Assembly (NCBI GenBank): GCA_973895155.1
Contig: OZ316893.1
Location: forward strand, 15,902,645 to 15,966,644
Length of the DNA stretch: 64,000 nucleotides
Direction of reading: 5' to 3'
Source of the DNA: Marsupella aquatica
Taxonomy: Eukaryota > Plantae > Marchantiophyta
Part shown: positions 810 to 60,923 of the stretch, piece after piece
Layout: each line of letters begins with the position of its first letter
Numbering within the stretch: position 1 is the stretch's first letter
Made by a program: the position numbers and the translations under genes
Notes under the pieces: model-generated
Database searches by the model: none
The model's input: only the letters and a program-made list of their open reading frames with translations
Told to the model about the DNA's origin: nothing

Positions 810-1717
810 GAGATAGGTAACATCATCAGTATTTAGTGACTGATAACTGATATCAGTCACTGATATCAGTGAAGGGTCCATAGTGAGGGGATGTGGGCGA
901 GGTCTCTGACATTGGCAAGGATATGTCGGCGTACTCACCAACATCGTAAAATCATTCAAGCGGACCCAATATGTCCTTTCCTTACACATTAATGCGACCA
1001 AATTAGAATGTCAGCGAGACCTCCGACTTGATCTTTACTATAATTTTTTTGGAAACTTCATACATTGTCTCTCCTTGGTGGGTTAGACGCTACGCTTGGC
1101 TGTTTCGTGTTGGGAAAAGATCTCGGCGAGGGTCGCCAACTTCACAAAGTTGCGTGCTCAAAACTAAGCTGCCTGCTCAAAACCGCAAAATGTGTCAGAG
1201 ACCCTCACCGAGTGTTGCATGTCATTGGCGATCTGACGTATGTCCAGCAATCTGACGTACGCCAGCATATCTCGGAGAAGGCCACCAAGATCTGGCCAAG
1301 AATCATCTCAGAGACCCTCGTCAAGTTTTGCATGTCGGTGAGGTGGTCGACATTGGCGATCTGATGTACATCTAGCGATTTGATGTACGCCAGTATATCT
1401 AGGAGAAGGCCGCCGAGATCTGACCAAGATTCATCTCAGAGACCCAAGCTGAGTTCTGCATGTCGGCGAGGTAGCCGACATTGAAAAAACACCGTGCCAA
1501 ACATGTTTGTCGTGCAAATGTCAAGTAATTTATTAATCACAAACTCGTACAAAATTTGTCCATGTTACAAAATCTGAACCAAAACTACCAAGGGTGAGGA
1601 TAAATTCTTCTAAACTAAACCTAAACCAACAATGGCGGCCGACCTAAACCCTAAATGATCAAATGTCATCACTATGAAGCACGTACCCACTATCGGGATT
1701 GTTACTCTCCCAACTCG

Positions 1718-2390
1718 CTACATTGTCACACCACAACAATGTGTGTAGCCTGTTCTCCACCCATAGCTTGACCCTTCCAAGCTCATCCTCATCAAGAAAT
1801 TGTCATATAGATCCCTCTCATATCTCTCTGTCCTCCAAACATAATATGCCACACAAGACTTCAATGATATAGGTGACATCATTTCGAGGGCATCAATAGG
1901 AGGAATTTGACGCAAGAGGACTCGAAATGTGGACGCAGTTGAGTGTCGAGTCCAATGTCAATTTTCAGATATGTTTTCAACAATGTTCAACAACACTTTT
2001 ATGGCTGCCCATCCCTTCGAGTGAGTCATTAGGAATCTCCATTTCCTACTAACTCTTGACAATACACGCATGTTGTTGATTGCGTTGAATGTAGCATTAT
2101 CATCTCTGCCATGAGCATTTGCACATTCAAATCTATTTCGAAGTAGAGGCCAAATGTGTCCCTTCGTCAAATCATCCGGGAGGCCGGGGATGAGACTCTG
2201 CTTTCGGGCTTCCTGACTGCGCAATGAATAACGCATAGGCTCCCCCCGAACTCCTGGGAGAACTCCATATTGACAACTTATCGGAAAGAGCTATCAATTT
2301 TAGCTTAGTAATGGTCGTCCTGAACTTCTCAAGCCCTGCAGCGTACTTCTCATGATAACACCTCTGCGCATTGGATCCTTCCATGTTGAA
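1718..2390 (-). pseudogene. F-box-like cargo gene A in MULE-1 (frameshift/stop)
   Basis: SLIPGLPDDLTKGHIWP...LSRVSRKWRFL resembles the plant F-box LIPGLPDD...VSRxW signature; paralogous to 10804-11072. Confidence 0.6.
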
Positions 2391-2989
2391 CAAGAGAATA
2401 GTGTCAAGTGAAGTCCTCCATGATAAGGCAACCAAAGAGTGAATAGTGATATGGATGTTTGACCTCACACATTTTGCCCAAAGCTTATGGTTTTATTGCT
2501 AGGAGTAGATGAACTAAAAAAACATTGTCTAAATATTATGGGACTGTTCGATATATTACAGGGTCTCCTATATGTTATCCATCTCAAAGAGGGTCTCTGA
2601 GATTTTGCGGATTGTGCCCGCCAATTTGTCAACACAATATAGTAGACTTATCTCAGAGACTTTGGCCGACTTCACAAGGACAAAAGTGATGGTAAACGAC
2701 CTCTCCAAGACACATCTCAGAGACTCTCGCCAACATGAGAAGGACAATTGTGTACTGCTATGTATGTTGAAGAGGTCACTAACATAACGAGAACACCGCA
2801 CTGAGATTCCGCTCAAAAAAGTCCAAACTTTTACTATTCAAATTTTTTTGTACAAAATTGTTCTAATTGGTCTATTACACAAAATTGGTCTAATTGTTCT
2901 AATTGGTCTATTACACTAATGTAGGCTGATATTTGACATGGCATTCAATGTGGGCAAACAACTTTCACATTGGTGCTCAGTCGATGCCG

Positions 2990-3279: not shown

Positions 3280-3325
3280 CTATAGCTATAGTCATTGCAG
3301 CCCATAGTATGGAGTTTGTTATCAA

Positions 3326-5818: not shown

Positions 5819-6376
5819 TGTGACACGGGTAACGTGTCACTTAACCAAACCCAGGTCGTAGATTAGGTTTTATACGGTCATTAGGACCGTAGCCGTAGCG
5901 TAGAATAGCACGTATAACCGTCTATTGCCATTATGAATAGATTAGGAGTAGGTTAAGTCGACCAAATGATTACAAATTTAGGAGGAGGATTATTACGCGC
6001 GACCGAGGTACGGTGGCGGCGGCGGAGTAAAAATCCATTAGGAGAATCACACTTGGACCGAGGCGCCGACTTCAGCTCATTATCGACGACCAAAACGGCC
6101 TGGCCTTCTCATGCTCGGGCTCATCCTGGCACCTCCATAAGAGAGGAGCCGATGGCACTGCCAGCCATTTGCTCATTTCTACCTTTTGGAATTCGCGGAC
6201 GCTGCCATTCACCCACCTTTTTGCTCGAATCAAGCTGACCTTTACAAGGAGATTATCGAGGGATAAGAGCGGAATGTGGCGAGATTTAGTCAAGACGAGC
6301 AAGGCCTCCACAAGCACGAGGACCAGTCGGGTGGGAACGCGGACTCGACAAACCGGACTCGACGACCCTTACAGCC

Positions 6377-6802
6377 TTGGGATTTTGGACCTTGTTTGGC
6401 GAGGTAGGTGCTAAGTTCTCTGAGACTTACTGGTACTCTTGTCCCGAGAAAGCTGCTTACGAACGAAGATACGCGAAGCTGGTGGCCAAGGTAGCACTGG
6501 TTAATTGCGAGAAGATAGCCATCACCAGGGATTCCAGCTACAACGAGCTGCGAGACTACATCACCGAGCTATATCTCAGCGAGGAAGGGCTTAGATCGGT
6601 AGCAGAGGCGATTCTTGAGGTCCCAGCAAAGTTCTTTAGGCTGAAGGGCAGCCAGCGGCTTACTCAAGCGGAGTTTGACAAGATTCTGGGGTACCTAGAC
6701 CAGCAGATCGCAGCCAAAAAGCACCAAGAAGACATCAGCAAACAACAGGAAGCGGCGCGTAATCTTACTTTCCTCGAGGAAAGTTCCAACGCCTTCGACT
6801 AG
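6377..6802 (+). CDS. Unknown helical protein within the solo-LTR-like unit
   Basis: Open 141-codon ORF with protein-like composition, directly followed by the next ORF. Confidence 0.4.
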   Translation: MGFWTLFGEVGAKFSETYWYSCPEKAAYERRYAKLVAKVALVNCEKIAITRDSSYNELRDYITELYLSEEGLRSVAEAILEVPAKFFRLKGSQRLTQAEFDKILGYLDQQIAAKKHQEDISKQQEAARNLTFLEESSNAFD

Positions 6803-6805
6803 GAT

Positions 6806-8583
6806 ATGGCCACCCCAACACCACCAGCACCTCAGCCGATGACCACCGGCGTACCTCCGAACCGGTCCCAAGTCCGACCAGTGATCAACACAGAGTGTTC
6901 TTCGGGTTCCGAGCGAGTTAGTCTGCAACTCGAGCAGCGTTCTCGTAAGCGGCCAAGGACGACGCCGGCCCCCGAATCAACAACGCGAACCAACGCCGCG
7001 CCTACACCTGCCCCGACAAACCCCCCGGCCAACCAGACCCGACGGCCCCCGGATAACCCGAAGTCCAACTTATTACAAGTGATCCGCATCCCCGAAGTAG
7101 TCTGGATCGCGATCAAGAAACTCGAACACGCTGACTATCTCAAGGAGCATCAGTTGGAGCCGTTCGCTCACTTGCTATGGAGACCGTGCGCCGCCGGGCC
7201 AAAGGAGATTTGTGAGTTCATCTCCAATTTTGACACCGACGCATCGACCACTAAGGTTCAGGGCAGACCTTATCACTCACGGAGCATCGGTTGGCACAGA
7301 TCTTCTGCCGGCCAATCGGGCCGGTGCCGGTTGAACTCTGAATTTGGGATAAGGAGTATATACCTCAGCACTTCAAACCCGAGGGTAAGACGGACAACGG
7401 ATACAAGCAGGGGTCGTGCACCAACTTAATCTGCATGGAGTGGCTTAACTTCATACGGACTACCCTACACATGATTGAGCCACGATCCGAGATCTCCCTC
7501 TGCACGATCGTGCAGGTGGAACAGTACAAACGGCGGAACTGGACCCAATTCTTTTACCAAAGATTCTCGGGGGAGCTGAAGCGGGCTCAGGGTGGTATGG
7601 CTATTGGGGGGAAGACTTACTTGGGAAGTCATATCGCCATCATCCTCGCCTGGTACAAGGCACGGCGGGAGGCCAGAGGAAAGAATATGGCCACCTCAGC
7701 CCCGACTAATGTCACCCCCGCACCAGAGGAGGCAACCCCAAGCGCGCGGACTACCGCTCCTCGGCCAAACCCCGAGCTGGAAGCCCCGACTAATACTCCG
7801 TCACCTCCTCCTATTGAAATTCTGCCGCCCCCTTCCTTCGAGCCTCCGCTACCCGCGGTACAACCACCCCCAATCCCTCCACCACCTGAAGAAACCTTCC
7901 CCTCCCCAGCGCAGACGACGGAGGAGATCGTTGCCCCGCCCGAGGAACCACTGGTACCCGAGAGGATGGAGGACTACCAAGTAGCCCCGGGGACCATGGC
8001 CTACGACCTGGTCCACAAGTTTAGCCAGACTATGTCTGGGGAGTTGGCGACGTACATCGGACAACAAGTCTCGGCATACTTTCAACCAGCCTTCTTCATG
8101 TTAGAGCACCAACCACGGATCGTAAGCCGCTTGGAAGAAGAACTCATGGCGAAGGGGAATGAGATCGGGCGCCTCCAAATGCTGGTAGAGCACCTCGAGG
8201 AGGAGGCCACTACTCACCGCGAGGAGTTAGTCCGCACCGTCGAACAGAGGGACGGACTAACGCAGGAGTTGAGCGGAGCGCAAGCAGATCTCAAGAAGCT
8301 GGACGACACCGTGCTTCAATTGCGCTCAGAATCTTCGGCTCGGGTTACCAGCCTGACCGACCTCAACAAACAATTCCTGCAGGCAGCTCAACAGGTAGCT
8401 AGTCTCTCCGCCGAACGGGATAAATTGCTGGCGCAGGACCAGACCCATCGCGACTCCATTAACCAGCTCAACCCGGAGGTAGCGTGGCTCCAGACATAGG
8501 CCGATGAAGCTGCAAATGAGGCGGAGGAGGCGGTGTGGGACAACAAGGCCTTGCAGGATCGCGTTGCCCTGCTTGTCCTCTAG
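6806..8583 (+). pseudogene. Retroelement accessory ORF: putative plant-transposon-protein-like domain, Pro-rich linker and coiled coil (frameshift near 7270)
   Basis: EICEFISNFD..TTKVQGR resembles Athila/Tat extra-ORF domains; PPPP tracts; heptad-rich C-terminus (ORFs 6806-7429, 7435-8499). Confidence 0.5.
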
Positions 8584-9666
8584 CGGGGAAAACCTGGGCC
8601 CACCTCTGATCAAGGCGGCTCGTGGTCTCGCCCCGACAGGGGGACAAACCCTGGTCCGACCACAGCACACACGTAAGGGGTGGTTAGCGAAGGGTGGAAG
8701 CAGGTGCCGCGCGAGGTAGTTGAGTCAACGGCATCTTTTGGTTAAGGGTAACGATAGAATAGCTGTCATTAGGCGCCGATTAGCGGCAGTAGGAAGAATT
8801 AGGACCAAATCAGTTAGGAGCAGCCAGCGTAGGATGGAGTCCATCAACGGACTAGATTTTGTCAGTAGACTTAGCTGCTGCCATTCCGGTTAGCACTCTT
8901 GTCGTCAACGGTCAACCAATCAGTACGGCGCGGCCAGTTAGTCAGAGGGTAGTTAGTCAATAGGTATTGCCCCGGAAGGTAGTATCCTCCGGTTCCCTTC
9001 CGCAAACGTAGTATTTAGGCTTCCTCTTCCGCTATGGAAGGGGGAGAAGGCTTAGTTATCTCGGCAGAAGAAAAGGCGAGACACGGGGAGTCCCGGCCTG
9101 AGTAGGATCAGAGAGCACCAAGGAGTGAGAGCCAGAGTCGAGCTTGCTGGGCAAGTGCGAGGTGGGGCCTCGTAGAGACTGGGCATCGACTGCCGGTGGG
9201 CCTACTGACCCCCTTAGAAGTCGAGTCAACCGTGTAAACTGATGCTTCGCTGAGTAAATGTAGTCTTTTCCCTCTAATATTTCCGCAAGTAACTGGTGTT
9301 GTGTGTATGCTTTGTCTGGGCAAAGGCGCCATTTCAAGGGACGTACCGGGTGCGGACTAATGGTAGGGATTGCCACCCATTGCATGTCACAAGGTTCTAT
9401 CGCATCGATGGCTTGAAAAGCCCCAAGCCGGGAGTTAGTCCGAGTCACTAACTGAGGGAAAATTCCAGCAGTGGAAAATAAATATACCTATGACTAGTAC
9501 AAATTGCGTAAGTGTTATACCAGTAAGTATATCGACTTAGCCCGACTTAGGGCTAATCGGGGCCACTACACACCTCCTTGCCCGAACCCTCACCCCTACT
9601 GGTGGTCGAGGTTGCGCCATGGAACTAAACTGGATTTAAGGCCCAGGTTAGGGACGCGACAGAGAC

Positions 9667-10545: not shown

Positions 10546-10803
10546 CAATGATGTAGGATTGGAGATGGGCTGCCTGTTGCTTCAGCAGGGGGGGTACTGA
10601 CACTGGATATCTTGGATTAAAAATTGAGCCTATGGGCTACAGCGGACTGTGTACATCTTTGATCCCATTGGTAGCGCTGTTGTTCTGTTTGGGTCCTCTT
10701 GTACCGAGGCATTCATTATGTACACTGCTGTGACACTGCTTGTTCCCCGTGCCATGGGGTTTTCGTGGCTCATATATATAAAAATATAAAATGGTTTAAA
10801 AGG

Positions 10804-11072
10804 AAATGTCTCCATTTCTTGTTGATATGAGCAACTGATCGCACCGTCAGGAAGAGAGTCTTCACTGGATGATGACCATCCCAGACTGGATCCAAAATTG
10901 CAACACCTTCAAGCATTGACCAAATCCAGGGCCAGATGTGCAACTCCACAACATCATCAGGCAACCCTGGAATCAAGTTACTCACTGGAGGGTGACATCG
11001 TAGGGGATAATGAGGATTCCAAATGCGAGCACAGTCTTGTTCCTTACTAGCCAGAAGCATTCGCAATTCCAA
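10804..11072 (-). pseudogene. F-box-like cargo gene B, N-terminal half
   Basis: NLIPGLPDDVVELHIWP...VAHINKKWRHF; homologous to 1958-2236. Confidence 0.6.
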
Positions 11073-11269
11073 TCTAAGCTTTTATTGTGTCCTATCAATC
11101 AAAAGCTCACGTTCGCCTGCATCGCGATCCATAGTAAGTTTGTAACAAAAAAACATGCCTAATCTGAGAGCGGTCCGATGGTCTACCCTCCTAATGTGAC
11201 CCTGTCCATAGCAAACCCTAAACACTAAACCGACAAGGACAATGGATACATAATATCGGTCACATAAAA

Positions 11270-12470
11270 TGGTCTTTATCCTAAACCCTAAACCCTAGGC
11301 CCAAAACAGGTGACCCTATTTGGCTGTTTGGTAAATGTCGGCGAGGGTCTCTGAAATACATTGTCGGCGAGGGTCTCCAAGATACAATGAGGAAGAAAAC
11401 CTGTTCATGTCGGCGGAGGTCGCCCAGATCAGACAATACCGGCATTTGATACAAGTTTGCCGACCTCAAAGTCAAAATTGGTTGGTCATTTTTCCTAAAC
11501 CCTAAACCCTAGGCCCAACACAGATGACCCTATTCAGCTGTTTGGTAAATGTCGGCGAGGGTCTCCAGAATACAATGTCGGCGAGGGTCTCCGAAATACA
11601 ATGTTGGCGAGGGTCTCCAAAATACCCTGTCAGCGAGGGTCTTAGTAATAACATGTTGGCGAGGGTCTCCGAGATACAATGAGGAAGTAAACCTGTTCAC
11701 GTTGGCGGAGGTCGCCGAGATCAGACAATACTGGCATTTGATACAAGTTTGCCAACCTCAAAGTCAAGATTGGTTGGTCATTTTTCCTAAACCCTAAACC
11801 CTAGGCCCAACACAGGTGACCCTATTCAGTTGTTTGGTAAATGTCAGCGAGGGTCTCCAAAATACAATGTCGGCGAGGGTCTCCAAAATACCCTGTCAAT
11901 GAGGGTCTCAGTAATACAATGTCGGCAAGGGTCTCCAAAATACCCTGTTAGCGAGGGTCTCAATAATACAATGTTGGCGAGGGTCTCCGAGATACAATGA
12001 GGAAGGAAACCTGTTCATGTTGGCGGAGGTCGCCGAGATCAGACAATACCGGCATTTGATACAAGGTTGCCGACCTCAGAGTCAAGATTGGTTGGTTAAC
12101 ACATTCATCCATTCATAGGAACCGTTGATACATAATATCGGTCACATAAAACCACGTCTTTTTTCCTAAACCCTAAACCCTAGTCCCAAAATAGGTAACC
12201 CTATTGGGCTATTTGGTAAATGTCGGCGAGGGTCTCCAAAATACAATGTCGGCAAGGGTCTCCGAGATACAATGAGGAAGGATACAATGAGGAAGGAAAC
12301 CCTATTTGGCTATTTGGTAAATGTCGGCGAGGGTCTCTGAGATACAATGTCGGCGATGGTCTCCAAAATACAATGTCGGCGGAGGTCGCCGAGATCAGAC
12401 AATACCCGCATTTGATACAAGGTTGCTGACCTCAGTTAGAGTCAAGATTGGTTGGTTAATACATTGATCC
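11270..12470. repeat. Complex tandem array (~210-380-bp units) with CCTAAACCCTAAACCCTAG heads and multiple TCGGCGAGGGTCTCC motifs
   Basis: Unit heads at 11280, 11494, 11786 and 12165; internal ~22-bp subrepeats. Confidence 0.9.
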
Positions 12471-15400
12471 GTGTCAATATTCCTTTTCAAGATGTTTGCA
12501 AAGCACTAGTACAAGTGCTTGCACGGGAAGTAGGCTCTTCCCATAGACTCCCTGTACATGAAATCCTTGCAGGAGCAACTTGGGAAGACACATATCTGTA
12601 CGCAATGTATTGAAGTTTGGCCCCTGCAAGTGTTGTTCACCATGAGCCTCACGCCTGTAGCATTCCCTATTTTGATTCTCCTCATTGATGTGCACACAAT
12701 TGCCTCGGTCCTAGCATTACAGATACGTGTGGCAGCGTACTTGGAGGTGTCTGACCTCCTTCGCCTTGCCTGGCCATTGTGTCGAGTACCACGCTCATCA
12801 GGCATTGTAGGATCTATCTATTCTGGGTATGTGTTCAAATCCATTATGATGTCAGCAGCACTCACCAATTCATTCATAACATCTTCACCAAAAATGACGT
12901 CCACTCCATTGTTGTGCAAGAACAGGACCTCTTCTTCTGTAAGATTAGTTCCACGAGAGACAGGAAACTTTGAAGGCAGTGGTGGTAAAACACTTGTAAT
13001 AAATGGCAAAGATGATTTTGTGCAACACTGGTTGTTTGGGCAAAACCAATACGGATATGGAACACCTGGTTCGTTAAATTTACTCCCAGCCAGCCAACAG
13101 ATACCGACAATGCCTAATCCGCTTACTTTTAGTCCTGCCTCTCTAATAAATTGAGCACATACTCCCTGTTCCTTGCCTTTGAATGCACCTCGACAATCGG
13201 GACTCTTACCAATCATTGAGATGCGAGCCAAAAAGAACATGCCTGGAACCAAATCACTTTCCTGAACACGTCTTCTCACGGGCTCCGGACGTGGTGTTGA
13301 CCTCGTCTTTCGGGGTTCCACAATGACAACATCTGGTTTGCCCGAGCCACGAGAGCCATCGGACGACAGATCCACAACTTCAACATCCTGGCTTTTCAAG
13401 TTTGCGTCCCTATTTGCAATCCCCTTGAACTTCCTCTTCTTTGGTCTGGTTACCAAAACAATGTCAGGCTGGTGGGAATCTTCTACTACAACATGATGGC
13501 CAGCAGCGGCCTTCCCGGGTTTCATCATAACCATTTCTACATCTCCGCTAAGTGGGTCCGTGGATGAGAACTCACGCAAGTGTGGTTGAGTTACAGTGGT
13601 GTTCAATTTTGGAAAGAAAGATTCTGCATTCCCAATGGCAGTAGCATCTCAAAGTCAAAGTTCAAACAAGCTCGGTGCCCGTCCTTTCCTCCCACTGAGT
13701 TTGTAGTTCTTCAAAGCTCCATTCTGGCTCAACGCGCGAGATGCATCCAGGGTACAAGATTGTACTAACCCAACCTTTGTACTAGATGAGGATTTACACA
13801 TAGATGCGTGTACCAACTCTACCCCGCTGTGGTTAGGCATGAGTGCTGCCTTTTCTCTGTCCATCTCCTACAATATTGTTCCAGAAAACATATCAATTTT
13901 GGTCATTTTTATGTTCTAGGCAACAGACAAAATAGGTGTACCAGAGCATATCTCGGAGAGCTTCGCCGAGATCCGACGTGTTGACGGATATCATGCATAG
14001 AGAGGGAAAGTGTTAAAACACTTACGAGTCTCAAAAAGTTTCCCCACTAAGAAAATCAAACAATCCACCAAGACATCCACGTGGTGAGCTCCTTTGCTTT
14101 TCCTGGTAGCGCATTGCCCTCATTCCACCACGTTTTCAGCTTCTCAAAAACTCGATAGGCAAGAACTATATTACCGACGTGCCAAAGTGAATCCAACAAT
14201 TCTTTATGCTCAAATCTCTTACTTGGGACAATGTGCTTTTGCATTCTCTATATTGATTGGGCCCAGTGAAATGCATCAGACCTCTCTTTATGGGAATTTA
14301 CCTTTCCATCCCAAAATTTAATGCGGATCGCATTCCACCCAGCAGCAGCATTATCAGCCATAAATCCACAGAATTGCACATTCTTCAGCCCATGTTCTTC
14401 ACATACCCTCCTCATGACCTTCCATGCAGTTTGCAATGACTTGTTGTCTTCTGAAACTAGCTCACAGACAAAGATTGTGCATAAGCCTCGATAGAAATGG
14501 TCATATACGTGTGCATACATAGTGCACCATCTATTGTCAAGTATGCGGTGCATGACATCAGACATCACCCAAGAATGCTCAAGATCCCCTCCTTGCTGCA
14601 TTCTTCAAACAAGGTCCACTCCTGACCCAGGACTTTCTGTACTCATTTTAAAAATGTGCGGCCGCTCATTTGTTCCCACGTTCTGGGCTGGGAACAAAAC
14701 ACTTTGGATAAAAGGAAATGCAGTCTGCTTCCGCATCTCTAGTATCATGCTTACATTAGACAACACATGAGAGTATCTCTTGATGCTCCTGATCATCAAG
14801 CGGAAAACAGATTCGTCGCCCAGAATGGCCAACATTTCATCAAGGTCGTTTGCCTCCTCAGTGGTGGCCATCTCAGCCATTGGGTCCTCAAAAATATCTT
14901 TAAGTTTCTGTATTGCTTCGACCTTGATCACAGACGGCCGTGCAGTAGGACTCCTCTTCAGTTCCTCCTCCACGAGATTACGCACAAGTGATCGTTGATC
15001 TTTGTTGTGCGTGAACATTGCGGGATGGGTGTGATTTCCAACATGCATGGCAACACGAGACTTGTGACAGTAATTAAGGTCGTCCTTGGTTGGAGTGATG
15101 TAGTACATCTCACTTGGGCATCCAACTATACACCTAGGAGGCCTCCTGCAGAAGCTACAAATTACACTTGATGGGGGAACGTCGCATCCAACAGGGAAAG
15201 GCAGCTCATTTGTGCCTGCTCGATCTCAGGTCCACTTTGCAGAATTGTGCTCTTTGCGCTCTTCAAAATTCTCACAATCCCTATGCATACAATGCAAAGA
15301 ACCCAAACACTTCACAGTTTGGATCTTGTAAGAGTGACTGTTGTTGTTTAGCTTTGGGCCGATATTTGCTCCTGTCTCAATCAACCTGCTCCACATGTAA

Positions 15401-16679
15401 CAATCATTCTTTCGCTCCATGCCCAAAAAGAAACACCCCTTCGAGTATGGACCTGTAAAAGGTGGCAACTCAAAAACATGGTCTCCATCATACACTTCTG
15501 GTAATCGTTGAACTCTCTCCGGAAATTTTGTGCTCAAAATCTTAGAAGCAGCTTGTACACATCGAGAGGTCCCTTTCCCGTGTAGCATGGCATGAACAAC
15601 ACTGACAAGGAACTCATCCTTCCATACTGAATTGCCTTCTCGAAGACCCTCTCTGAGAAGGAATGCCTTTGATCGAGGTGTCTCCTTTGGTGGAGTATAA
15701 AGCAACTCCTCGATCCTCCCAAAATTGGGATGATGTAGACTCGGGTGTATTCGTTCGAGAAGGTTCACCATCTTGAAGACCCCCTCTGAGATTGAATGCA
15801 CTTGATCGAGATTTCTCTTTCACTGGTGTATCACCATCTCCAAGATCCTCCCACATTTGGAATGAATTGGACCCAGGTGTACTTGTCCGAGGAGGTTCCC
15901 CATCTCGAAGACCCCCTCTGAGATTGAATGCACTTGATCAAGGTTTCTCTTTCATTGGTGTATCACCATCTCCAAGATCCTCCCACATTTGAAATGAATT
16001 GGACCCAGGTGTACTTGTCCAAGGAGGTTCACCATCTCGAAGACCCCCTTTGAGATTGAATGCACTTGATCGATCTCCTTCATTAGTGTATCCACATCTC
16101 CAACATCTTCCCACATATGGAATGAATTTGACCAAGGTGTACTCAATCAAGAAGGTTCACCATGTCGAAGACCCCCTCTGAGATTGATTGCGCTGGGTCG
16201 AGGTGTCTCCTTCACTAGCTCATCTGCCTCTCCAACATCCTACCACACTGGCGACAAATTTGAGTGGGGTCTACCAACTCGGTGAATGTCCTCCCAAAAT
16301 TGGGACGATTTCTGACGCGGTGTATTGTTCCATAATTCACCCGGTTCTTGGAGTGCGCAAAATCTCCAAGACCCTCACTAACATTGCATGAACTTGCTTT
16401 CTTTTTGCAAATAGTATAGGACACGCCACATTTCAGATACCACTCTCACTCATCTCCATCGCCTTTGGATTCAGCAAAAGTGGACAACCCATCTTCTCTC
16501 TCCTCGTAAATCATAAAATCCCCTACCTTCAAACCAAATCGGCTTGCTACTTCATGCTCCTTAGTGACTCAAACACTGTCTCCCTCAATCTGACGAAAAA
16601 CAACAACATCCCCGGTTACTGATTGGATTATCACAAGAGAAGCCATGTGTCCCAAATCCACACTGGGAATGTTAGTCAT
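12395..16679 (-). pseudogene. MULE-1 transposase: GCM-like Zn finger, DDE catalytic domain and SWIM finger; decayed, one intron ~13870-14025
   Basis: KCLGSLHC..C / CSFC..C..HVGNHTHP; VMSDVMH (D1), FMADNA (D2), DAFHWAQS (CxxH-equivalent), GVELVHASM (E); SWIM CSCKDF...CKHL; homologous to the MULE-3 transposase. Confidence 0.85.
15740..16200. repeat. 132-bp (44-codon) tandem repeat, ~3.5 copies, inside the transposase N-terminal region
   Basis: AGGTTC(A)CCATC..GAAGACCCC at 15761, 15893, 16025, 16153. Confidence 0.9.
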
Positions 16680-17750: not shown

Positions 17751-17912
17751 ATCGGGTCATTTGGGCAACAGTATTTGTACTCGGCGAGCCTCTCTGAGAT
17801 GGTAGATTTGTACGGACACGCGATCCGTATAGAATTACATTGTAAAAACATTGAAAAGTATTGTACGGTCAGTTTTTGCATGCACTTTTGGGTTCATCCT
17901 TGTATTTTGGCA

Positions 17913-45097: not shown

Positions 45098-47514
45098 ATG
45101 GTGGGAGGAGGATCAGGTGGTGGGGACGGGGCTGGACCCTCTCGGCCCTATGATGAGATTATGAGGGAGATTTTTATGAGTAGGGCAAGGCTAAGTGCTG
45201 AGGATGCAGAGAGAGTTGTGCCACTTCTTCAGCCCTTGATTGATGGATCTAGGATCGAGGCAGAGAAAGCTACGGTTGCAACCATTACTGCAGAGAAAGC
45301 TGCAAAGAAGAAGCGAAAGGAGGCAAAGAGAGGCAGGGAAGATGGTGAGGAATCCCTCTCTCCCCGAAAAAAAGAGAGGAAGCTTTGCAAGGCAGCTAAG
45401 GAGGCTGAGAAGAAGAGAGTGGAGGAGTTAAAGCGAAAGGAAGCTGAGAGAGCTCTAAGGCCTGAGCTAGCCCTAAACTCAGGTGGCTCCCCAATGCCGA
45501 GAGGATACAATCTCTTCCGCAACCAGTTCAAGCAGGTGGTGAAGGCCAATTTGGGCCATTAGATTACTGGGGAAGGAAGACTGAGGAGGAGAAAGGTCGA
45601 ATTCGAGAGCAAGTGAAGGAGCGATTCAGGAATGGGGCCTCCCTTGATGACAGGTTCTTGAATAAGAGGATATCAGCTTCACTTTCAGACATGCGAAATC
45701 ATCAGAGAGAAGTTCAGGAAGTACCTTGCTGATTTGCCAATTGATTCAGAGGTGGTCAGGGAGCAAGGCTGTCCAGATGTGCTCTCCCCAGATGAGTGGG
45801 CAGCTTGGCTTGAGGAGGAATTAGCAATCCAAGCCTCGCAAAAAAAGAGACAATGGGACCACGAAATCAGCTTGGCAGAGGAGAAGCGGAAGGTTGGGGA
45901 GGAAATTGACATCCTCCCCCTCCAACAAAACCTACGGCAGTGGGGAGCTCAAGCAGTACGATTAAAAGAGCCTCCCAAGGACATCATCAAAGCATTGGAG
46001 GGAGTCCAAGGGCGGCCCATCGTCACTCACCGCATGGGGCAAGGAGGCTCCAATCGACTGAAAGCAGAGTTTGTAAGTGCCTTCTCCCTCCTCCCTAGCT
46101 CCTCCCCCCCGACCACCTGACCTTCTCTTGCAAAGAATGACTCAATTTCTGCTGCCGAATGCCTTTATGTCGTTTCAGCCCGATGTTTTTTGCTCTCGGG
46201 ACTGTTCTGTCCGATACTCATCCGAAGCTTTTAGCATCGAACCTAGTATCGGACCTATTGTTATGCCATTTAGGGTTACCGGGATCCGATACTGTTCCGT
46301 TGCTTTAAGTATCGGAAACAACATCGGACCCCTCGTAAGAACAACGGATTTTTTTAAATGTTGCTCTTTCACTCAATTAGGGGTATGGGTTTGCATTCTT
46401 CAGTACCCTAAGAAGGCATGGGACCCCTTACAAGAATTGGGAAAAGTTGGGCCGATGCAAAGACTAGTTTTCATGCTAATGGGTTTCTCGTTTGGTATTG
46501 TGATGTGTCAGGAGCGGGACTGGGGTCGACCTATTGGGCCATCAGAGAGGGAGTTAGCAAGGAGGGATGGACCCCAAGCTCTTAAGCTCCACCTTGAGGA
46601 GGAGCTGGGAGAGGTAATTGGTGTTGAATTGGCCCTGTATAGGTTCAAATTGTTTTTGGTTGTGGTCAATATTAGAGAGCTTTCAAGGAACTATGTTTTC
46701 AAATGCAATTTAACCCTACTTATGTATTGTGCAGGATGAGGAGACAGGGTCTGATGAGGGAGAGGAGGGTGAGGGTGAGGAGGGTGAGGGAGAGGAGGGT
46801 GAGGGAGAGGAGGGTGAGGGTGAGGAGGAGGGTGATGGTGAAGAAGGAGAGGATGGCGAGGGAGAGGAGGGAGATGATTCTGAGGTGTCTGTGCCCTTAG
46901 AGGGTGCGGCAGAGTGATCGGGGAGGGTGCCCCGAGTTACCCCTACCCCTACAGTCCCTCATGTTGCCCCCACATTAGCACAGAGGGGTAGGTCACATGG
47001 TGTTCATGGTGTGGCCTCCCATCAGTCGGGAGTGTCACGGAGTGCGAGGCCCGGCCCCTCAGGGGGTAGTAGAGGTGGCGCGGGACCAGGCCATCGCTCT
47101 GGAGTACTATCCGGTACACCTGGCTCTTCTCGACGAGTGGGTCGTGACATGGAGGATGGTGGCTCTAGGGGGCGAGCACCATCACGTGAGTCTGGTGGGA
47201 GTACCGCACGGCATGGGCCACAGACAGCATCTGCAGGGGATGCATCCCATCACTCTCACAAGTCTACCGGAGGGGGAGATGGCTCCTTCCACTCTACCGT
47301 GTCAGTGGGTTTAGAGACATCTGTTGCACCTCAGCATCCTAGCGGTGCATCTAGTGGGTCAGGGTCCCGGCCAACATCAGGCCAACCCACTGGTGAGCAG
47401 GTGGTTGCCACGGTTGTGGGCAGCCAAAGAGAGGAGGGGTCTTGTGTTCCTGGATCTGTACCACCCCCTCGTTCTCGCCCGCAGAAGAAGAAGGGATGCA
47501 ACACACCTTTTTAG
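45098..47514 (+). pseudogene. CACTA second gene (TnpA-like/unknown; Lys/Glu-rich helices, GE acidic tract, Gly/Ser tail), spliced
   Basis: ORFs 45080-45562, 45734-46120, 46729-46917, 46927-47514 with GT-AG gaps; THRMGQGG resembles the CACTA TnpA-type H..G.GG motif. Confidence 0.5.
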
Positions 47515-48397
47515 AGCTTAGTGGCATGAGCTAGATATGTAGTGCATGGTAGCTTTTATACTAGCATATATATGTACCATCTAGTATAGTAAGCTACCTA
47601 GGCTACTACATATTGTACATACCAGGGGGTTTCCCTTTTTGAATATGATATTTTGAGCTTGTACATATAACATTCTTTTGCATCAATCATAATTTAACCC
47701 AATTTGGCCCATTTCACCATGAAATTAACCCTAAACCCTCAAATACCAACCCCATGAGGCCCACTCTTCTATCAAGAAAGAATCACCCTTGTCCGTTACT
47801 AGTCCAATGCAATATACATCAGAAAAACACCTAATTATCCCATGCTTTCAGTGTCGGGACATCCGATACTCTGCTCTTCAAAAAGTCCTATACTAAATGC
47901 ATCGGACCCCTCGTCCAGCAAGCATGACAAAAATCCAATGTCCGATACTGACCACTTCGGACCATCCAATATAAAAACAATCAGATTGTCTGATACATGC
48001 AACATTGGACCTTCCGATCTGTAATCCAACGGATGTTATGATACTAAACGCATCGAAAACTCTGATGCTATAAATTACGCACATTGTGAAACTCTAGGTA
48101 ATGGAAATTCCAATATGATATGTATCGGACGCCAAGTTTTGCGATTAAGGTCACCCAAGTGGATATCCGACTCTCTTTGCATCGGATACAAAATAGTCCG
48201 AAATGGTTTGCTTCGGAAATACCGATGCAGAGAGAAACGGAAAGTCCGAAGGTTGTCCGATGGTCGGTGTCCGATATGTGGAGAATGGGAACATACGAAG
48301 CGGGTTACATCGGAAGTACCAAATTTAGTGTGCAACTTTTGTGAAGGGATCCGATGGAGATGGCATCGGATAAAGGCCCAAAAATGTACTAGTGTCC

Positions 48398-50247
48398 ATT
48401 GCGATTTGCGTCTGCAAAAAAAAATCCCCCGTCAAAAATAGACATGATATGCTAACGAGATTGCTAGCAAAAATGAGGACATCAGAGAGAAAGAAAATAG
48501 GTCACTTACTACGCAGATGAAGTTCCCACACTACCTCCATCTCACTACCTACCAAGAAATCCATCCTTGGAGAGACTTCAATTTCCTAGCATAGCAGTTT
48601 CCTTCCTTCCACCAACGATGGATTTCATCGGCAACTCAATACGCCTAGACATATGTTGGTGCTGTTCTTAGCCTTTCCCACATTTTATAGTGCTCCCGAT
48701 GCTGATCTTCCCGAATACCCTCCAATGTGTGCCTACGAAGAGATTGAGCAAAGTGAAAGGCGTCATGAATTGTGCTCCTTCTTAGGGTGACGGACTCCTA
48801 AAAAAAACATTCTGAACTGCAATCCATCCAGCCTCGGCATTATCAGCAATAAATCCTCCAATGACTGGGTCGCGCACATCATGATCAAAGGCTGCAACTT
48901 CAATCATATGTCTCCATGCTGTTTCGAGAGACAAGGAGTCCTCTGCACGGAGCTCACAAGTGAAGATGGTACAAAGGGACCTGTAATTATGGTCGTACAC
49001 ATGGGCACTGAATGTCAGCCACCCAATGCTAATTCGCCACATCACATCAAAACTGACCCATGCAGCTTCCAGGACACCTCCACTCCTCATCTGCCTGAGA
49101 ATATCAACACCCAAACTTGGGCCATTTGTACTCATTTTGAAGACATGAGCCCAATTGTACTCATTTGTACTCATTTTGAAGACATATGCTTTGCAGCATT
49201 TGACTCAAGAGACGGCTTAGGATAGACGTACAAAAGTTTAGTCGGACATTCTTGGATGCATAGAGGCCGCTCATCACAGAATCCGCACACCAACCCTCCT
49301 TCCTCCACAAACTCACCAAGATGGAACGGCTCAGTAAATTGTCCATTTCCTTGGAAAGAATAGTCATTTTTGGAACCGGTGTGCTTCAACTTTCTACATA
49401 CCAGATTTTGATATTCAAGGACACCCGCACATCTTACTTTTGACACAGACCAGTGGTTGCAGGGTTTGAGATTAGCTGAAGTTGTGACAAGTCCCCGGAA
49501 AAGTCTCGTCCAAGGGTAGCCATCATTATCCCTGTCCATGTCCTGAAGACCATATCCTCGACAAAATTGACCTTCGACTAGAGGAAGCTCAAAAACACAG
49601 TTCCCATTGTATGAAGTGGGCAAAGTCTGCACTTGAATCTCCTTCCAATCGTTTCCCCTTTGGAAATTTGCCAACTTGCTTGACCCAGTAATATTGAGGA
49701 AGGCATCGTATGCACTTACTCTATATAGAACTGGCTGAGATTGAAACTTGTTATGACTCACAGCTTCAAAAAGGGCTTTCTCAGAAGACTTCGTAGATAT
49801 AGAAGAGAGATCCCGACCCACACTCTCAGGGGAGATGTCGATAATTTTGGGTACAGCTAACGATGGTGGAGTCAGCAAGTCTGGATCTAAAACACTGATA
49901 TGTGCAATGTCATCCTTACATGAGACCATCTCTACAATTGAACCACACTTCAGGTCCCAAACTCTCTATGGCAATATTCCTAAACCATTATCCGGCACCT
50001 CGTGATTTTTGGACCCTTTCCTAGAATAAAGAAGGAACAACTTCTAGATAAAATCATCTTCCAAAAGCCCAAACCTCGATAACAGGAAAGACTCCTTGAC
50101 AGAGATAACATTATTCTCCAGATTATCTAGAACAACAACATCACCCGTCTTCTTTCTCTCGATCAAACCTTTGATCGCAGAGAAGACATGCTGACAATTT
50201 TGGACATTACAATCTACAACAATCCTCAATTGTGAGATACGTTGCAC
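48398..50247 (-). pseudogene. MULE-3 transposase, N-terminal/central part
   Basis: TGDVVV..SRFGL N-terminus, KVRCAGVLE..CGFC..C (GCM-like), WVSFDVM, AHVYDH, FIADNA, AFHFAQS; intron ~48412-48509. Confidence 0.85.
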
Positions 50248-52291
50248 TCCTATTTCTCCATATACACATGAGAAAACGTTCTCATGTAGGTGTTTGACTC
50301 AACATATTTATTTAATAAATGACCCATCTTCCCGTTACTTGACCATTATTTTATCTTATATGGAACTATATATGGAATGTTAAAGCTAGCGAGATCGCTA
50401 GCTCAATCAACCACGTAAAATGGTTCAAAAACTTATAAAACACCCTCTTTGACTTGGTCAAATTAAGAACCATTTTTTGGCTAGCGATGTCGCTAGTAAA
50501 AATAGTTTCTCATATGTGACCATTATGACCGTTTGTATCCGTTGGAATTGGTCAACGAGTAACTTGATGTCAACAGTACGGTGGAGTACAGGACACTTGT
50601 CTCTATGTTATTTGATACTTTTGCTTCAGTCATGAGTTTGGTTGATTGTATTTTTGTAAGTACATGTATCCCTAACGGTGTGACCTGAAAAATGATTGTG
50701 AAGAGCACATATCGTACATAATATCTGCATCTCTTTTCACGACTGGGCATTGCATTCAGGTGAAAGCAACAAAGGCAGGTACAATTCTGTCTTTGACTGG
50801 ATGATTGGTTCTTGGGTTTCAAGGGTTTTTTTACGTTCTCAAAGCATGTTGCCCTCATCCTTGACCTGTTCATACCCTTATCATGTTACGGGCCGGCTGA
50901 TGGAGCCATTGTCTTCACCTGAGAGCTTGTCATCAATAGGATCATTCAAGTCAGTCAAGTCAAGCCGAAGGGAGACAAGGTCTACTACAAACAAGAAGGT
51001 GCTTGAGGCGGGATTGAAAACACCAAAGAGACCGAAGATGGTGAACCAAGTGGATGTTGTGAATCCTATGTTTCAACCTGGCGCTTTAGAACCCTATTTT
51101 GTTGTCATCAACCGCTATCTTTTCCCTTTTGGAGCTGACAAATTTTGATTCCCCCTTGCTCCTCCAAGGATTTCGCTTTGCAGAATGCAAAATATGCAGA
51201 TTGTTTGGTCCTTGCAGACAAACTCAACTGTGATTGAGACCCTCAAGAATGAATTCCAGACGCAGGGATACATCGAGGATGCACCTCAATTTTACGTACA
51301 AATGACGGACAAAGAGGGCCATGTCCAGATGTGCGACGATGTGATTAGGGAGTCGTGGGATGACATGTGGATTCTTCAGAACAACAAATTCAAGAGGGAA
51401 TGTTATTCTCATGAGGCTTTCAAAATTTTGAAAGACAAAATGTTTTGTGTTTTTGATGGAAATCATCGTCTCTACTCGTGGATGCAACTTGCAAACAAGA
51501 ATCCACATGATGTCAAGTACCATCCTCGAGTTGTTTGCCAAATTTTCAAGGGTGACAAGAACTCATTTGTGCAGATTGAGTCGGCCATGCATGCGTTGAA
51601 TAGGTTTGTTTCTATTCCTTCAAGCAGTGAATTGAAAAAAATTCTTTTTGTTCCTCTTGTTAGCAATCTTGCTGACCTATTTCTTTGGTTCAGGTTGACT
51701 CAATGTCACGTTGAGAATTCTTGGGTGCTTGAAGCTGAGCTAGCCCAGAAGGTGCTCAGCAATGATCTTTCTGTATACAAAGATATCATTGATGCAGACA
51801 ACTACAAAATTTTCCAGCAGAAGATGGCAAATATCAGGAAACCGGCTTGGTATTCAAAGAACATGACACTTGATGCCTGCACATACATTATGTCTGCTGC
51901 TAATATTGCAACGCAGACTGAAGATTTGAAGAAGAAGTTCCAGTTGAAAGAAGCGCAAGGAGAACCGCTTTCTAAAGCTGCATAAGACATGGCTATGAGA
52001 GACATGATGAAGGAACAACTAGTAGATTGGAATGTGAAGGTGCCAAAGATTGGACCTCTTCTGACTCATGAGTTTGGTGACTTTTTCCATAAGTGTGTTG
52101 AGATGCACACGGGGATGCACAACTACTGCAAACATGAGAGGAAGGAGGCCCAACGAACAAATGATAAAGGAAGGGGAAATGTGTCGTGTGGTCTTGATTG
52201 TGCGAGACTATTTACTGGTGTCTCTTCATTGACACCCCAACTGAGATGTGTACTCCTTGAGGCACAATGCAGACTTGAGCTTCGCAAAAAG

Positions 52292-57117: not shown

Positions 57118-58861
57118 TCACGAAAAAACATCTTTTTTTGAAACTTCTCATAAAACTCAAAACTCAACACCACCGCGTAGCCCACGAAGCTAGGAGTCCA
57201 ATACTGAAAGCCGAAATCAAAATTGAAATTCAACAAAAAAGTTATTCAAATTTTGGTCGGGGTGGGTAAAACCTTGGGAAACTCCCCCATTTTGACCACC
57301 TCAGAGAATAACCAAAAATACCCAGTACAACCCGTCGTCGGAATCGCGATGTGATTGGTGCGCCTTGTTGCTAACTCCAGTGGCAACGTCCTCACCGAAA
57401 AAGAACCAAAAAAGTTCCCGTTCGGCGGACGAAATCTTCGTCGGACGGCCAAAAAACAGCTCTTTGTTTTTTTCAAGAATATTCCCGCACAATTCGACAG
57501 GTCTCACAGGGGGCCGTCCCCTTGTTGGAGCGGTTAAAATGGAGGGCGGCAGGTCCCGACATCAAGTAGAACAAAAAGAGGAGAAAAAAGGCTAAAAAAG
57601 GGTCCTTAAAGGGGGTGCAAAGTCCCTAAATTCTAAAAATACAGGTTTAAAAAAGGCGCATCCGCATCACCTATACGCGAGGAAGGAAAAAAACAGGCAA
57701 AAAATAGGCCCTAAAGGGGGTCCTTAGTGCCCCTTAAAGCCAAAATACACCCCGTATGGGGTCGGGGGTACATGGGCAGGCGAGTGCGGGCGTATGAGGG
57801 GCGGGAGGCTCGCAGGTCGGCTGCATACGCAGCCGGAGATGGGGTCCCGGGGGCGTACCATTGCCGTGCACCGGGGAGGGGTGCTGGCAGGAGGCAAGCG
57901 CAAGGTGGGACTACGGGGGCGTAGGGCGAAGACAGGGCCGGCCTTAAGGCGAAACCTGCCGGGAGGGAGTCGGGGCCGGCTTGCGAAGGGTGAGGTGCGG
58001 GGCGCGTGCCGGCCGGCGCTGCAGACCCCACCGTATAAACGGGGTGCGGGGGGGCAGGCGATTACGGGGTCACGGGGGCCGGGGTGTGTAAGGTGTGTAT
58101 ACACACCTCGTGTGTGTATACACACACCAAACACCCCCTTTAAAACAAAAAGTGACCCTTAAAAATAAAATGCCGATTACACACCTTATCCGCCGCTGTT
58201 TGAAACAAAGAAAGTGAACCCCGCTGACAGAAAAAGTTTCCAAATTGCACCGGCACAGTTTGCAGCTCCAGTAGAGTAAAAAAATTCCGCCACGACGCCT
58301 TCACTCCGCGTCAAGTGGCAATCTCGGGCTCTAAATGACCGCCTTGCCGCGATCAAACCGTTGAGCCGTAGCACTTCGCATTTCTTCCACCGAGTCAGAT
58401 GTCACAAAGAGAAACCCGGTTCAGATAGGAACAAGCTCCATAGCTTGTGAAAAAACCTGAATGCCTCCGTCACTCGTCACGTCTCACTTGGTAACAACTC
58501 GGTAGCAATCGAGCTACCGAAACGACCAACTCGCTTCAACCTTCAAGTTGAGCTATAATGCGCGATCCCTCCCGCACTGCACAGCTCACACCGTTGAAAA
58601 ACGCAAACTCTGGTCTCTCCCCCGAAAAGCCGTCAAACATGAATAAAACCTGAACGACACAAATTTCAATTCCTCCGCACCATGGATATCGATCAACGAG
58701 TTTTAACCACCGTTAGAAAGCCCTCTCACTAACCTATCCGCTCAGCCACACACAATCGAGTTTCATGCGACAAAACTCTGAATGTCCCATTGACAATGAA
58801 CGTTGGAAGAAACCTGTCACGAAAAAATCTCGTCACCTCCCAGGCATGCTCAGATACCACT

Positions 58862-59205
58862 TGTTGAGCATAGACTACATTCGCAATGGCAAGCCCATGA
58901 ACCATCCAACGCACAAGAGTCAACACAGAGAGATACGTGGTTCACCTCCACATGAGGCTACGTCCACGGGAGCACACAGGAGCTTTACTGCACTCTAGGC
59001 CGACCGGCCATACCAAGCATCCACAGCACAAGCTCTCCCTATCTCTCAACTAGCTCCGTAACAATGAGCCTAAGTTCCACCAGGGTCTGGCATCAGCCTT
59101 GGCTATATGCACAACAACACTACGGCTAACATTAGCTTAGACCTAACCCGAGTTAGACTAACTATGGTTAGCTCATGAGTCACAAGACTAGAGCAATATC
59201 TAACA
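58862..59205 (-). repeat. Copia-1 5' LTR
   Basis: Adjacent to the PBS; direct repeat of 52292-52634. Confidence 0.95.
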
Positions 59206-60923
59206 AAAAGTACTTCCACCCCGGTCAATTCTTTGACACCAAAACAAAACTTTGGCTTCACCAATGGGCTGTATGGGAGCAGGTCGAGTCAATTTGTTTT
59301 TCACTCATGTCTAAGATTATTTCTGAGTTGATCCCAACTATTCCAGATGCAAGGATCCTTATTTTGTCTGAGAAGACAAAGCCACCGCTAATCCTTGACA
59401 TAGAGGAGGACTTTGAAGATTTCCAAACGAGAGTGAAAACTCATTTTTTCAAACAGATTTGGCCACCAAAGTCGGGTGAGAAGATTGACATCTCACTTTT
59501 TTGGAGGAGGGCGAAGAGATATACGTATTGTTTTTTTGTGGATAGAGAAGTTGTTGACAAAACATATGGTGGTCCTATCTTGCTTGCTTCTTGCCTTGGA
59601 TAGTAGGGGTGAAAGAGGATCCAACCTCTGTTAAATACGAAGAGTACTCGACGTACCCATGTGAGGGAGTGGAGGCTCCAAGGAAGATGAGTGAGTGGGA
59701 AGTCCTCCACTGTCCATGGTATTTAGAATCAGACAAATGGGCAGTGACATTTGACACTGTAGAGAAGGCAGCCTTTCATATGATAAATCGAGGCTTGATA
59801 CTAGAGTCGTCTTACATTACGGAGTCCAAATTAGCTCCTGTAGAAGCAGAGGCTGGCGGATGTGAGGCAATGGAGAAAGTTGTTCTTGGTGTGGCCGCCA
59901 TTGTTGACCGGAGTCAATCGAGGAGACCTCGGAAGGTGCCGGTGAAGGACTCGTCTAAAGATGGATCAATCTTGTCTGGCAAGCAAAGTAAGTCCTTTTC
60001 TCCTCTTATATATTTTCATACTACACTCGGAGTAATTTTGTCTGAGTGACCTGTCTGACATGAACATGTTTTTCAGAGAAGAGAAAGGCAGCAGCCTCCA
60101 GGAGTTTGAAGAGTGGGGCGGATGATGGAGAAGAACCCAAGTCTCCTGATGTTGAGGTCACAACAAAATCTGCTGTAGACCTTGGTTCAATCAAGCGTTT
60201 AAAGAGGAAGCGCAATGTGCAAATTCTCTCCGACTCGGATGAGGAGGAAGCATGCATCGCTCGAGGAGTAGCACAAATGTGTGGTCTTAAGAAGGACGGT
60301 GAGAGGCTTTTCTTGGCAAAAAGCAATCTCACTGAAACTGCAAACTCAATTAGCCAGAGGAAAGTAAGACCTCCCTGGATGGGCGATGTAGATCAGTGGT
60401 TGTCTGGGATGAGCAAATCGAGCAAACACCCAAATCCAGTAATAATCAATGGCAAACCGTACTCTGGGATTGGTGCTCACTTGGGTTTCATTTTCCTTCC
60501 CACGGGTCATAGAACGAGTGTCACAGACCGGGAGGTCCCAAAGTGGAATGTTTGGAGTGAGAAATTACCATATTATGTTTTTGGATTCATGCGTCCGATG
60601 CTTGCCGATGATGGTTATGTTGCAGTTCTTCACAGCTATGACTATAACCAGATGAGACAAAAAAATTCTGCCGTCGAGCAGAAGAACAAATTCAAACATG
60701 TCCGACAGTATTCAGTTTTGCTTTCATCTCCTTTGTATCAGGCAGATATGGACATAGAGGTAAGATATTCTATTAAATTCCTCAATATTTTTTGTGCAAT
60801 TTTTGCTAGCGAGCTTGCTAACCAAAAGTACCCATTTCTGACAAATCCTTGTTTTCAATTCAGGTAGTTACTCTCATTATGGATGTCTTCTACAAGGTGG
60901 AATTCTCAGCAAAAGTCCCAAAA

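Follow-up and report, generated by a model that had tools for sequence, protein, structure and literature searches.

Why should three neighbouring transposable elements each be strewn with copies of a palindrome of its own? The question is raised by a stretch of 64,000 nucleotides from the liverwort Marsupella aquatica (assembly GCA_973895155.1, contig OZ316893.1, positions 15,902,645 to 15,966,644; hereafter the window), in which a preliminary description had noted three Mutator-like elements (MULEs) bearing words that resemble the parS sites of bacterial ParB proteins. Element 1 (810–26806) is a complete, decayed Mutator-like DNA transposon of about 18 kb without its nested long interspersed nuclear element (LINE), element 2 is a fragment (27540–33100) and element 3 spans 34750–60920, the borders of the latter two being approximate. 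The words are TCGG(C/A)GA-N3-TC(T/G)CCGA (M1), TAGCGCC-N-GGCGCTA (M2) and CTAGCGA-NN-TCGCTAG (M3), respectively. Our reading, to which we give a probability of roughly 0.55 from sequence comparison and structural models of relatives, is that the palindrome is the likely landing site of the accessory protein encoded by the clade itself, which, bound there as a dimer, would help the element to escape silencing by the host.

The words are strongly enriched and sharply confined. At up to two mismatches M1 has 43 matches, every one within element 1 (1123–25137), when 60 dinucleotide shuffles of the window gave a mean of 0.32 and a maximum of 3; M2 has six, all within 27567–31878, and M3 eight, all in the segments of element 3 (0.02 and 0.03 in the shuffles). 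With three mismatches allowed, element 1 holds 66 of the 67 M1 matches (4.2 expected), element 2 all nine M2 matches (0.6 expected) and element 3 all eight M3 matches (0.9 expected), leaving 0–1 matches outside for each word, so that the claimed confinement of the motifs to their own element is borne out in the window. The positions first listed were recovered, with two reservations: the M2 copy at 33084 carries a 1-base deletion, and the M3 copy at 51660 is weak, with five differences. The shuffle figures flatter the excess: the patterns came from the very sequence in which they were counted, and elements 2 and 3 were delimited with the matches already known. The limits of element 1 were set independently by its target duplication. 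In addition, the 67 M1 matches collapse into 10 clusters, nine of them in element 1 and most of them tandem arrays; the matches are therefore not independent and represent far fewer independent events.

Exact copies are few (three of M1, none of M2 and three of M3). C-to-T or G-to-A changes make up 88 of the 131 mismatches in M1, 10 of 17 in M2 and 7 of 9 in M3, mainly at CG positions, a pattern that prolonged methylation of the copies would produce; the observed/expected ratio of CpG in the element exons is 0.5–0.57. Aligning the M1 copies gives the consensus AT(C/G)TCGGCGA-GGG-TCTCCGAGAT, a 10-3-10 dyad with one built-in asymmetry, longer than the 7-3-7 dyad originally proposed. The words of elements 2 and 3 have TAGCG...CGCTA in common and differ in the middle.

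The M1 sites run through the whole of element 1. Close to the left end (894–1479) there are five 7-3-7 copies at 1123–1400 and 7-2-7 variants at 894, 926, 1011 and 1463, followed by a cluster of three copies (2584–2733). An array of 18 copies built of tandem units of 26, 52 and 292 bp lies 3' of the transposase gene (11338–12392), an exact copy sits in the transposase intron (13953–13969, intron donor at 14025), and 15 copies fill the space between the two divergent genes (17096–18839). Intron 1 of the accessory gene (20641–20759) has one copy (20709–20725), an inferred later intron has seven with a 44-bp unit (22244–22547), and 13 copies at up to three mismatches, with a 40-bp unit, separate the accessory gene from the Ulp1 gene (24401–25186). 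On the right, a 7-2-7 variant (26679–26694) stands some 110 bp short of the element's end. In element 2, M2 sites are found 5' of the accessory gene (27567 and 27629), in its inferred introns (30291, 31142, 31204 and 31273) and in spacers (31878, 32756 and 33071/33084, to 33097). Element 3 has M3 sites at 34945, 36153, 36376 and 36587, in the transposase intron (48452), between its divergent genes (50386 and 50481) and in the intron at 60760–60863 (60806, to 60821), plus the weak copy at 51660. The placement in introns and other non-coding DNA is mostly as first reported, the exception being 3–5 degenerate M1 copies within a 132-bp repeat of the transposase linker (15640–16378), which is probably coding. 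The claim that elements 1 and 3 each have a copy of their own motif in the corresponding intron of the transposase gene (at 13953 and 48452) was likewise confirmed; in intron 1 of the accessory gene the M1 copy of element 1 is clear and elements 2 and 3 have degenerate copies only.

Outside the window, the M1 word appears to follow the clade of the accessory protein. A metagenome scan yielded 61 pattern matches, from which four loci (L001–L004) were confirmed, all on contigs shorter than 1.9 kb; at this length none of them includes a transposase next to the accessory gene. To the ParB exon of element 1, L002 shows 55% identity and L003 53%. An 85-row tree, in which the database rows cover at least 125 profile positions, joins both loci to element 1 with 99/99 support. 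In accessory intron 1, L002 carries two copies of M1 and L003 one exact copy, where 0.01 and 0.00 would be expected at up to two mismatches. The best local alignment between these two introns is the motif itself, and they are otherwise unalignable. Since M1 has been kept in an intron that has otherwise diverged, the word follows the clade and not the single element, and it has apparently been maintained by selection in a clade-specific manner, judging from two loci of one clade. The statement that each MULE has its own palindrome is accordingly right in that each element has its own word, and is better made of each clade. The suggested co-evolving recognition pair gains partial support, in that M1 tracks the accessory protein at two loci of a single clade outside the window. 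The 85-row tree places elements 2 and 3 as sisters, element 2 on a long branch that a frameshift in part of its sequence has produced. A rapid tree of 60 rows, built from the exon that follows, does not pair them, and both fall outside a 99-supported branch of element 1 and Riccia; in each of the two trees a supported branch separates them from element 1.

The accessory gene of element 1 (19932–24239, + strand) is broken and its start codon is inferred; it encodes, in order, a ParB/Srx-like exon (to 20640), a helical region, an acidic linker and methyltransferase-like exons (23246–24239). Searching with a profile built from the three copies in the window recovered 297 clusters at E ≤ 0.001. 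Twenty chosen clusters were looked up, of which nine are from Riccia sorocarpa and two from Adiantum, with no algal protein by name among the 20, and a full-length search with the relative P0158 returned 31 matches, all from R. sorocarpa. Structural models were made of two Riccia relatives, P0012 for the ParB part and P0158 for the C-terminal domain. The P0012 model has a mean predicted local distance difference test score (pLDDT) of 74 and is ordered over residues ~133–720. Its five best VIA matches, all of the ParB/Srx fold and all falling on residues ~135–305, are KorB (Z 7.2, root mean square deviation 2.9, 95 residues aligned), PadC (6.5), Pnob8 ParB-N (6.0), Srx (5.4) and SerK (5.0); the top five Foldseek rows are ParB/Noc (E 0.24–0.57); and the Atlas neighbours of the window's ParB exon include clusters with PF02195 ParB_N (11% of members) and DUF3723 (31%). 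Each result is modest alone, and their agreement points to an N-terminal ParB/Srx fold. Over 39 rows the motif DGNHR is kept at G in 38, N in 38, H in 37 and R in 34, and a later Asn in 38; we take these to be the equivalents of the GxxR and Asn boxes of the ParB nucleotide motif. Searches of the PDB by sequence with the ParB exon, the ParB profile and full-length P0158 found nothing relevant, BFVD gave no match at E ≤ 0.001, with ParB-type phage proteins among its weak rows, and a word-based comparison of the element 3 open reading frame (ORF) with longer proteins accepted 0 of 1817 candidates.

The modelled C-terminal domain of P0158 (pLDDT 85) has a beta-class methyltransferase fold, matching CcrM with E = 2.3e-13 and Z 18.8 (root mean square deviation 3.5, 214 residues aligned) and M1.HpyAVI with E = 5.9e-4, and the beta-class order of motifs, IV before I, is present. 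The window exon itself reaches M.RsrI at E = 0.023. Pfam detects no methylase in the window ORFs, a weak N6_N4_Mtase match in one of 31 relatives and no other family on the accessory protein, and in NCBIfam PRK13699 is weakly matched by three of eight relatives. The catalytic motif is degenerate. None of the 24 rows in which this column can be read has the canonical [DNS]PP[YFW] (the column is missing from 4 of 28 rows), and acidic and aromatic residue are both kept in only one of the 24. Motif IV reads D[LMI]P[TSI] in 17 rows, DVPF in Adiantum, and HMGT, YLPT and FLPT in elements 1, 2 and 3. The S-adenosylmethionine-binding motif I is DFAGGWG in many Riccia-like rows and DWTVGSG in element 2, and is lost in element 1 (TFNAQFG). 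P0066, a protein from outside the window close to that of element 1, has SVGT at motif IV, so that loss of the catalytic motif is not just decay of the window copy. The sequences thus suggest that the methyltransferase is probably dead in these clades and perhaps active in ferns. Calling the product a ParB-methyltransferase-like protein fits the ParB/Srx and beta-class N6/N4 methyltransferase folds of the models; that it writes 4mC or 6mA is unlikely. The near-canonical DVPF belongs to P0117 of Adiantum nelumboides, and by its sequence an active version of the enzyme may exist. A possible connection with Marchantia DN4MT1 was set aside on description: DN4MT1 proteins have TSPPY, and the available part of the preprint mentions no ParB (bioRxiv 10.1101/2021.02.12.428880).

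How might such a protein act? That a protein encoded by the element reads the motif seems to us highly probable, and that this reader is the accessory protein is a good deal less certain but still favoured. The accessory protein is preferred because the sites are mostly far from the ends of the element, its terminal repeats have words of another kind, and the pairing of ParB with inverted repeats recurs with other types of transposase. ParB and KorB are nucleotide-closed clamps that spread from their sites. By analogy, a dimer of the accessory protein would read the dyad through its helical region or its methyltransferase-like domain; the ParB domain, once it had bound a nucleotide, would close the clamp, and the clamp would spread from the many internal sites to bring about a local, VANC-like loss of silencing; this part of the proposal, clamp spreading with anti-silencing, is tentative. 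More doubtful still is the broadest form of the idea, in which a Mutator radiation in non-seed land plants would carry a eukaryotic self-recognition system of the ParB/parS type: a nucleotide-gated sliding clamp fused to a dead methyltransferase would load at clade-specific palindromes present in almost all spacers and introns, extend along an element of 20 kb and keep CG silencing off it, sibling clades being kept orthogonal by differences in the arms of the palindrome and in the length of its spacer (1, 2 or 3 bp).

Several findings weigh against the accessory protein as reader of the palindromes. The motif is present in two of the four outside loci; the intron of L001 ends after ~60 bases, M2 and M3 are without an outside locus, and L004 (1035–1832), an AT-rich member of a distant clade, has T-rich tandem repeats and none of the three palindromes at the same intron position. 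A transposase search, intended to reveal linkage in Riccia through locus tags, gave 11 matches with none from Riccia, and the Riccia and Adiantum genes could not be assigned to transposons. The models are of Riccia relatives with ~25–37% identity to segments of the window proteins and not of the window proteins. The ParB match is modest, with Foldseek E values of at least 0.24 and VIA Z scores below 8 that may mark a common arrangement; no Pfam ParB family is matched by the window ORFs or the 31 relatives; and neither a helix-turn-helix nor another known DNA-reading fold appears in the VIA or Foldseek rows for residues 311–720, a helical region modelled within the whole protein and not alone. 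Finally, transposase and accessory gene are linked, and tracking by clade cannot separate them.

It is the transposase that offers the first alternative. It could read the palindromes, sub-terminal or internal, for pairing of the ends or activation of its own family, the accessory gene being a passenger or having another role. Element 1 does have M1 variants near each end, 85–200 bp in on the left and ~110 bp in on the right, at positions that would be usable by a transposase, and the nested CACTA element has a sub-terminal word of its own. Transposases are sequence-specific, and for AtMu1 the accessible text reports that the transposase suffices to bind and activate its cognate copies (bioRxiv 10.64898/2026.08.24.746577). 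According to the same source, however, this transposase and TnpA bind at the termini; here most copies are 8–15 kb inside, in introns and spacers, and the terminal repeats of element 1 have words other than M1. We regard the transposase as an unlikely reader on balance.

A smaller chance attaches to an accessory protein that binds the motif and, as an active N6-adenine or N4-cytosine methyltransferase, marks its own element. The clear beta-class fold, the retention of motif I in Riccia-like rows and element 2, and the Adiantum DVPF would suit such an enzyme, and a marking role has been proposed, in the part of the report available, for the Sola1-1 protein of Ectocarpus (PMC12477816). The absence of the canonical catalytic motif from all 24 rows, the loss of motif I in element 1 and the SVGT of P0066 make it very unlikely. 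Slimmer again is the case for a transcription or chromatin factor of the host, or for an RNA hairpin serving splicing or export. Many copies do lie in introns and between divergent promoters, and telobox-like AAACCCTA words, which we take to be a host motif, cluster at 11.2–12.3 kb; yet three words are confined to three clades, with 0–1 matches outside in the window, and loops of 1–3 bases, together with copies in presumably untranscribed spacers, would favour a dyad read as DNA over a hairpin. Least probable of all is that the palindromes are neutral and without a reader, short dyads spread by slippage or tandem duplication or the footprints of tiny mobile repeats, as the tandem arrays of M1 and the decay of all three elements might suggest, since different elements have single copies of their respective words in corresponding introns, and M1 survives in an unalignable intron between loci whose proteins are 53–59% identical.

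The remaining anatomy of element 1 agrees with a Mutator-like transposon. Its 9-bp target duplication, CATCCGGGC, is found at 801–809 and 26807–26815 and has no other copy in the window; LINE sequence flanks the element on both sides, and the flanks correspond to successive stretches of another LINE. The terminal inverted repeats (810–872 on the left and 26760–26806 on the right) are short and degenerate, ~50–60 bp with GAG...CTC ends, and the words in the left repeat are CAGT(G/C)ACTG and CTGATATCAG, not M1. The stop-broken transposase gene (12431–16661, - strand) encodes a zinc-finger region, a D..D..(D)xxHW..NxxES series and a SWIM-like end. By eye the series reads D, D, (D/C)xxHW, NxxES, a pattern that we take to be that of a Mutator-type DDE transposase; the SWIM match is weak (E = 0.23), and neither the protein nor its profile has a relevant match among the MULE families of Pfam or in the PDB. 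The transposase is 66% identical to the intact relatives P0196/P0197 and 65% to a protein of Calypogeia fissa. The assignment to Mutator rests on this pattern and on the length of the target duplication, 9 bp lying within the 8–11 bp of MULEs; the terminal repeats likewise fit the MULE range, which in the available text of that source includes non-TIR (terminal inverted repeat) and short-TIR elements (PMC6446971). The 132-bp tandem repeat in the linker spans 15638–16216, and P0196/P0197 have a variable low-complexity linker at the same place.

Element 1 also has cargo. An F-box-like small ORF (1958–2290, - strand; Pfam F-box E = 0.39) has a paralog at 10770–11081 (- strand), 32% identical to it and without a Pfam match, and a broken Ulp1-like (Peptidase_C48) gene lies at 25701–26372 (+ strand; PF02902 E = 3.9e-11); this set, two diverged F-box-like ORFs and an Ulp1 protease gene, is possibly directed at ubiquitin or SUMO. 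Telobox-like AAACCCTA words interleave with the M1 array at 11213–12304, where six of the 12 window copies are found. A target duplication was looked for around the nested LINE and was not found. The LINE itself contains an insert (5820–9660; 55% GC) in which CpG is far less depleted than in its surroundings and which has long ORFs at 6290–8499 without a Pfam match.

Contigs of four of the six listed sequencing runs (three organism codes) were aligned to positions 12300–26900, giving 2799, 3739, 577 and 314 contigs. No RNA run was among those listed as carrying the sequence, which has no bearing on expression. All 30 bins were covered in each of the four runs, at identities from below 90% to above 99%, and two stop codons of the window are CGA in other copies. 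These data show that the element 1 family is multi-copy along its length and that the window copy has decayed. At 20471–20505, the stretch coding for DGNHR, loose contig ends pile up in three runs, which suggests further diverged accessory-gene families in the organisms of those runs.

Of the three presumed MULEs, elements 1 and 3 have a transposase and element 2 has none in the window, where the transposase relatives match nothing within its sequence. The left part of element 2 is cut by a LINE and its ends were not found in the window; what it holds is the accessory gene, broken (28256–31833, + strand; motif IV and motif I as given above), and M2 sites only. An ORF with one stop, 3' of this gene (32066–32728), has M2 sites on both sides and no Pfam match. 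Element 3, whose ends were likewise not found in the window, is split by a CACTA element (38410–48394) and a copia element (52292–~59205), and a second copia element cuts it at ~60924. Both of its genes are in two pieces, the accessory gene at 50942–52291 and ~59205–60900 (+ strand; motif IV FLPT) and the transposase gene at 36880–38411 and 48414–50190 (- strand); the transposase is 28–54% identical to relatives of the element 1 transposase, and the layout is that of the two divergent genes of element 1. The CACTA element has CACTA...TAGTG ends, a TCC duplication, Transposase_21 and DUF4218, and contains a SET-domain ORF (42484–43356; PF00856 E = 1.4e-6); its sub-terminal word is ATCGGA/TCCGAT, with 21 of the 63 hexamers within one kb at its left end.

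The predicted ParB/Srx N-terminal fold, the GxxR-type and Asn motifs and the multiple dyad sites on the encoding replicon are shared with bacterial ParB/parS, KorB/OB and Noc/NBS. The bacterial sites are dyads of 15–23 bp present in several copies on the replicon of the protein itself, and the ParB motif is GERR. The proteins described here differ in having no ParA partner, DGNHR in place of GERR, a long helical middle and a methyltransferase-like C-terminus, and in a setting of eukaryotic chromatin.

Among eukaryotes, the closest likeness, judged by description, is Sola1-1_Ec32 of Ectocarpus, a DNA transposon of >20 kb with a 1104-residue ParB-like and N4/N6 methyltransferase protein (~1100–1200 residues, ParB-like plus N4C/N6A methyltransferase, in this comparison) encoded opposite the transposase, from which a class of self-binding accessory proteins was proposed (PMC12477816). 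Here the hosts are land plants, the transposase is of the Mutator type and the catalytic motif is degenerate; the accessible portion of the Ectocarpus account describes no motif, whereas dispersed clade-specific palindromes are found here. In red algae, Plavaka (EnSpm), Mutator and Zisupton elements carry the ParB-like PAG3 with adjacent arrays of inverted repeats as its proposed sites, the cassette includes a PF01555 methylase gene, and the parallel to VANC was drawn there, so far as the available text goes (Petroll et al., bioRxiv 10.1101/2025.02.11.637652). A ParB-like accessory gene, a giant DNA transposon, inverted-repeat arrays and a methylase in the cassette are thus common to both. The algal PAG3/PAG2 system differs in its ParB-2OG oxygenase and methylase-SET fusions, in using separate genes and in arrays beside PAG3; here ParB and methylase fold are in one protein, the sites extend across spacers and introns, and sibling clades have different words. 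ParB-helix-turn-helix proteins fused to methylases are noted in chlorophytes and chytrids, in the accessible part of one survey (PMC4738411).

The third parallel is VANDAL21 of Arabidopsis, also Mutator-like and with accessory genes, in which, from the available sections of the report, the VANC21 motif occurs in introns, intergenic and terminal non-coding DNA and is multiplied in tandem (PMC5735166). A family-specific, tandem-amplified short motif in non-coding DNA, as anticipated in the preliminary description, is what the window contains. VANC motifs, unlike the present words, are 9-bp, non-palindromic and in the same orientation, and those sections do not present VANC as a ParB-like protein; binding and demethylation have been demonstrated for VANC (PMC5735166) and are here conjectured from sequence.

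The pairing of a ParB accessory gene with inverted repeats has already been proposed for algal transposons and is not new in kind. What is added here is its occurrence in land plants and on a Mutator backbone, the fusion to a methylase that is probably inactive, the presence of three specificities next to one another, and one word kept in a diverged intron across a clade. No land-plant Mutator element with a ParB-methylase gene was found in the literature, subscription journals, Repbase and supplements lying largely outside the coverage of that search. In the accessible parts of the sources above, ParB-type accessory genes of eukaryotic transposons have so far only been proposed to bind their own element.

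Three clades with three words in one window provide a ready 3x3 specificity matrix, cognate against swapped, and Marchantia is a transformable model in the same lineage. If our reading is correct, these elements would represent a second, unrelated route to VANC-like anti-silencing and a bacterial cytidine triphosphate (CTP)-clamp mechanism working on eukaryotic chromatin, and they could yield orthogonal sequence-specific tools for the epigenome.

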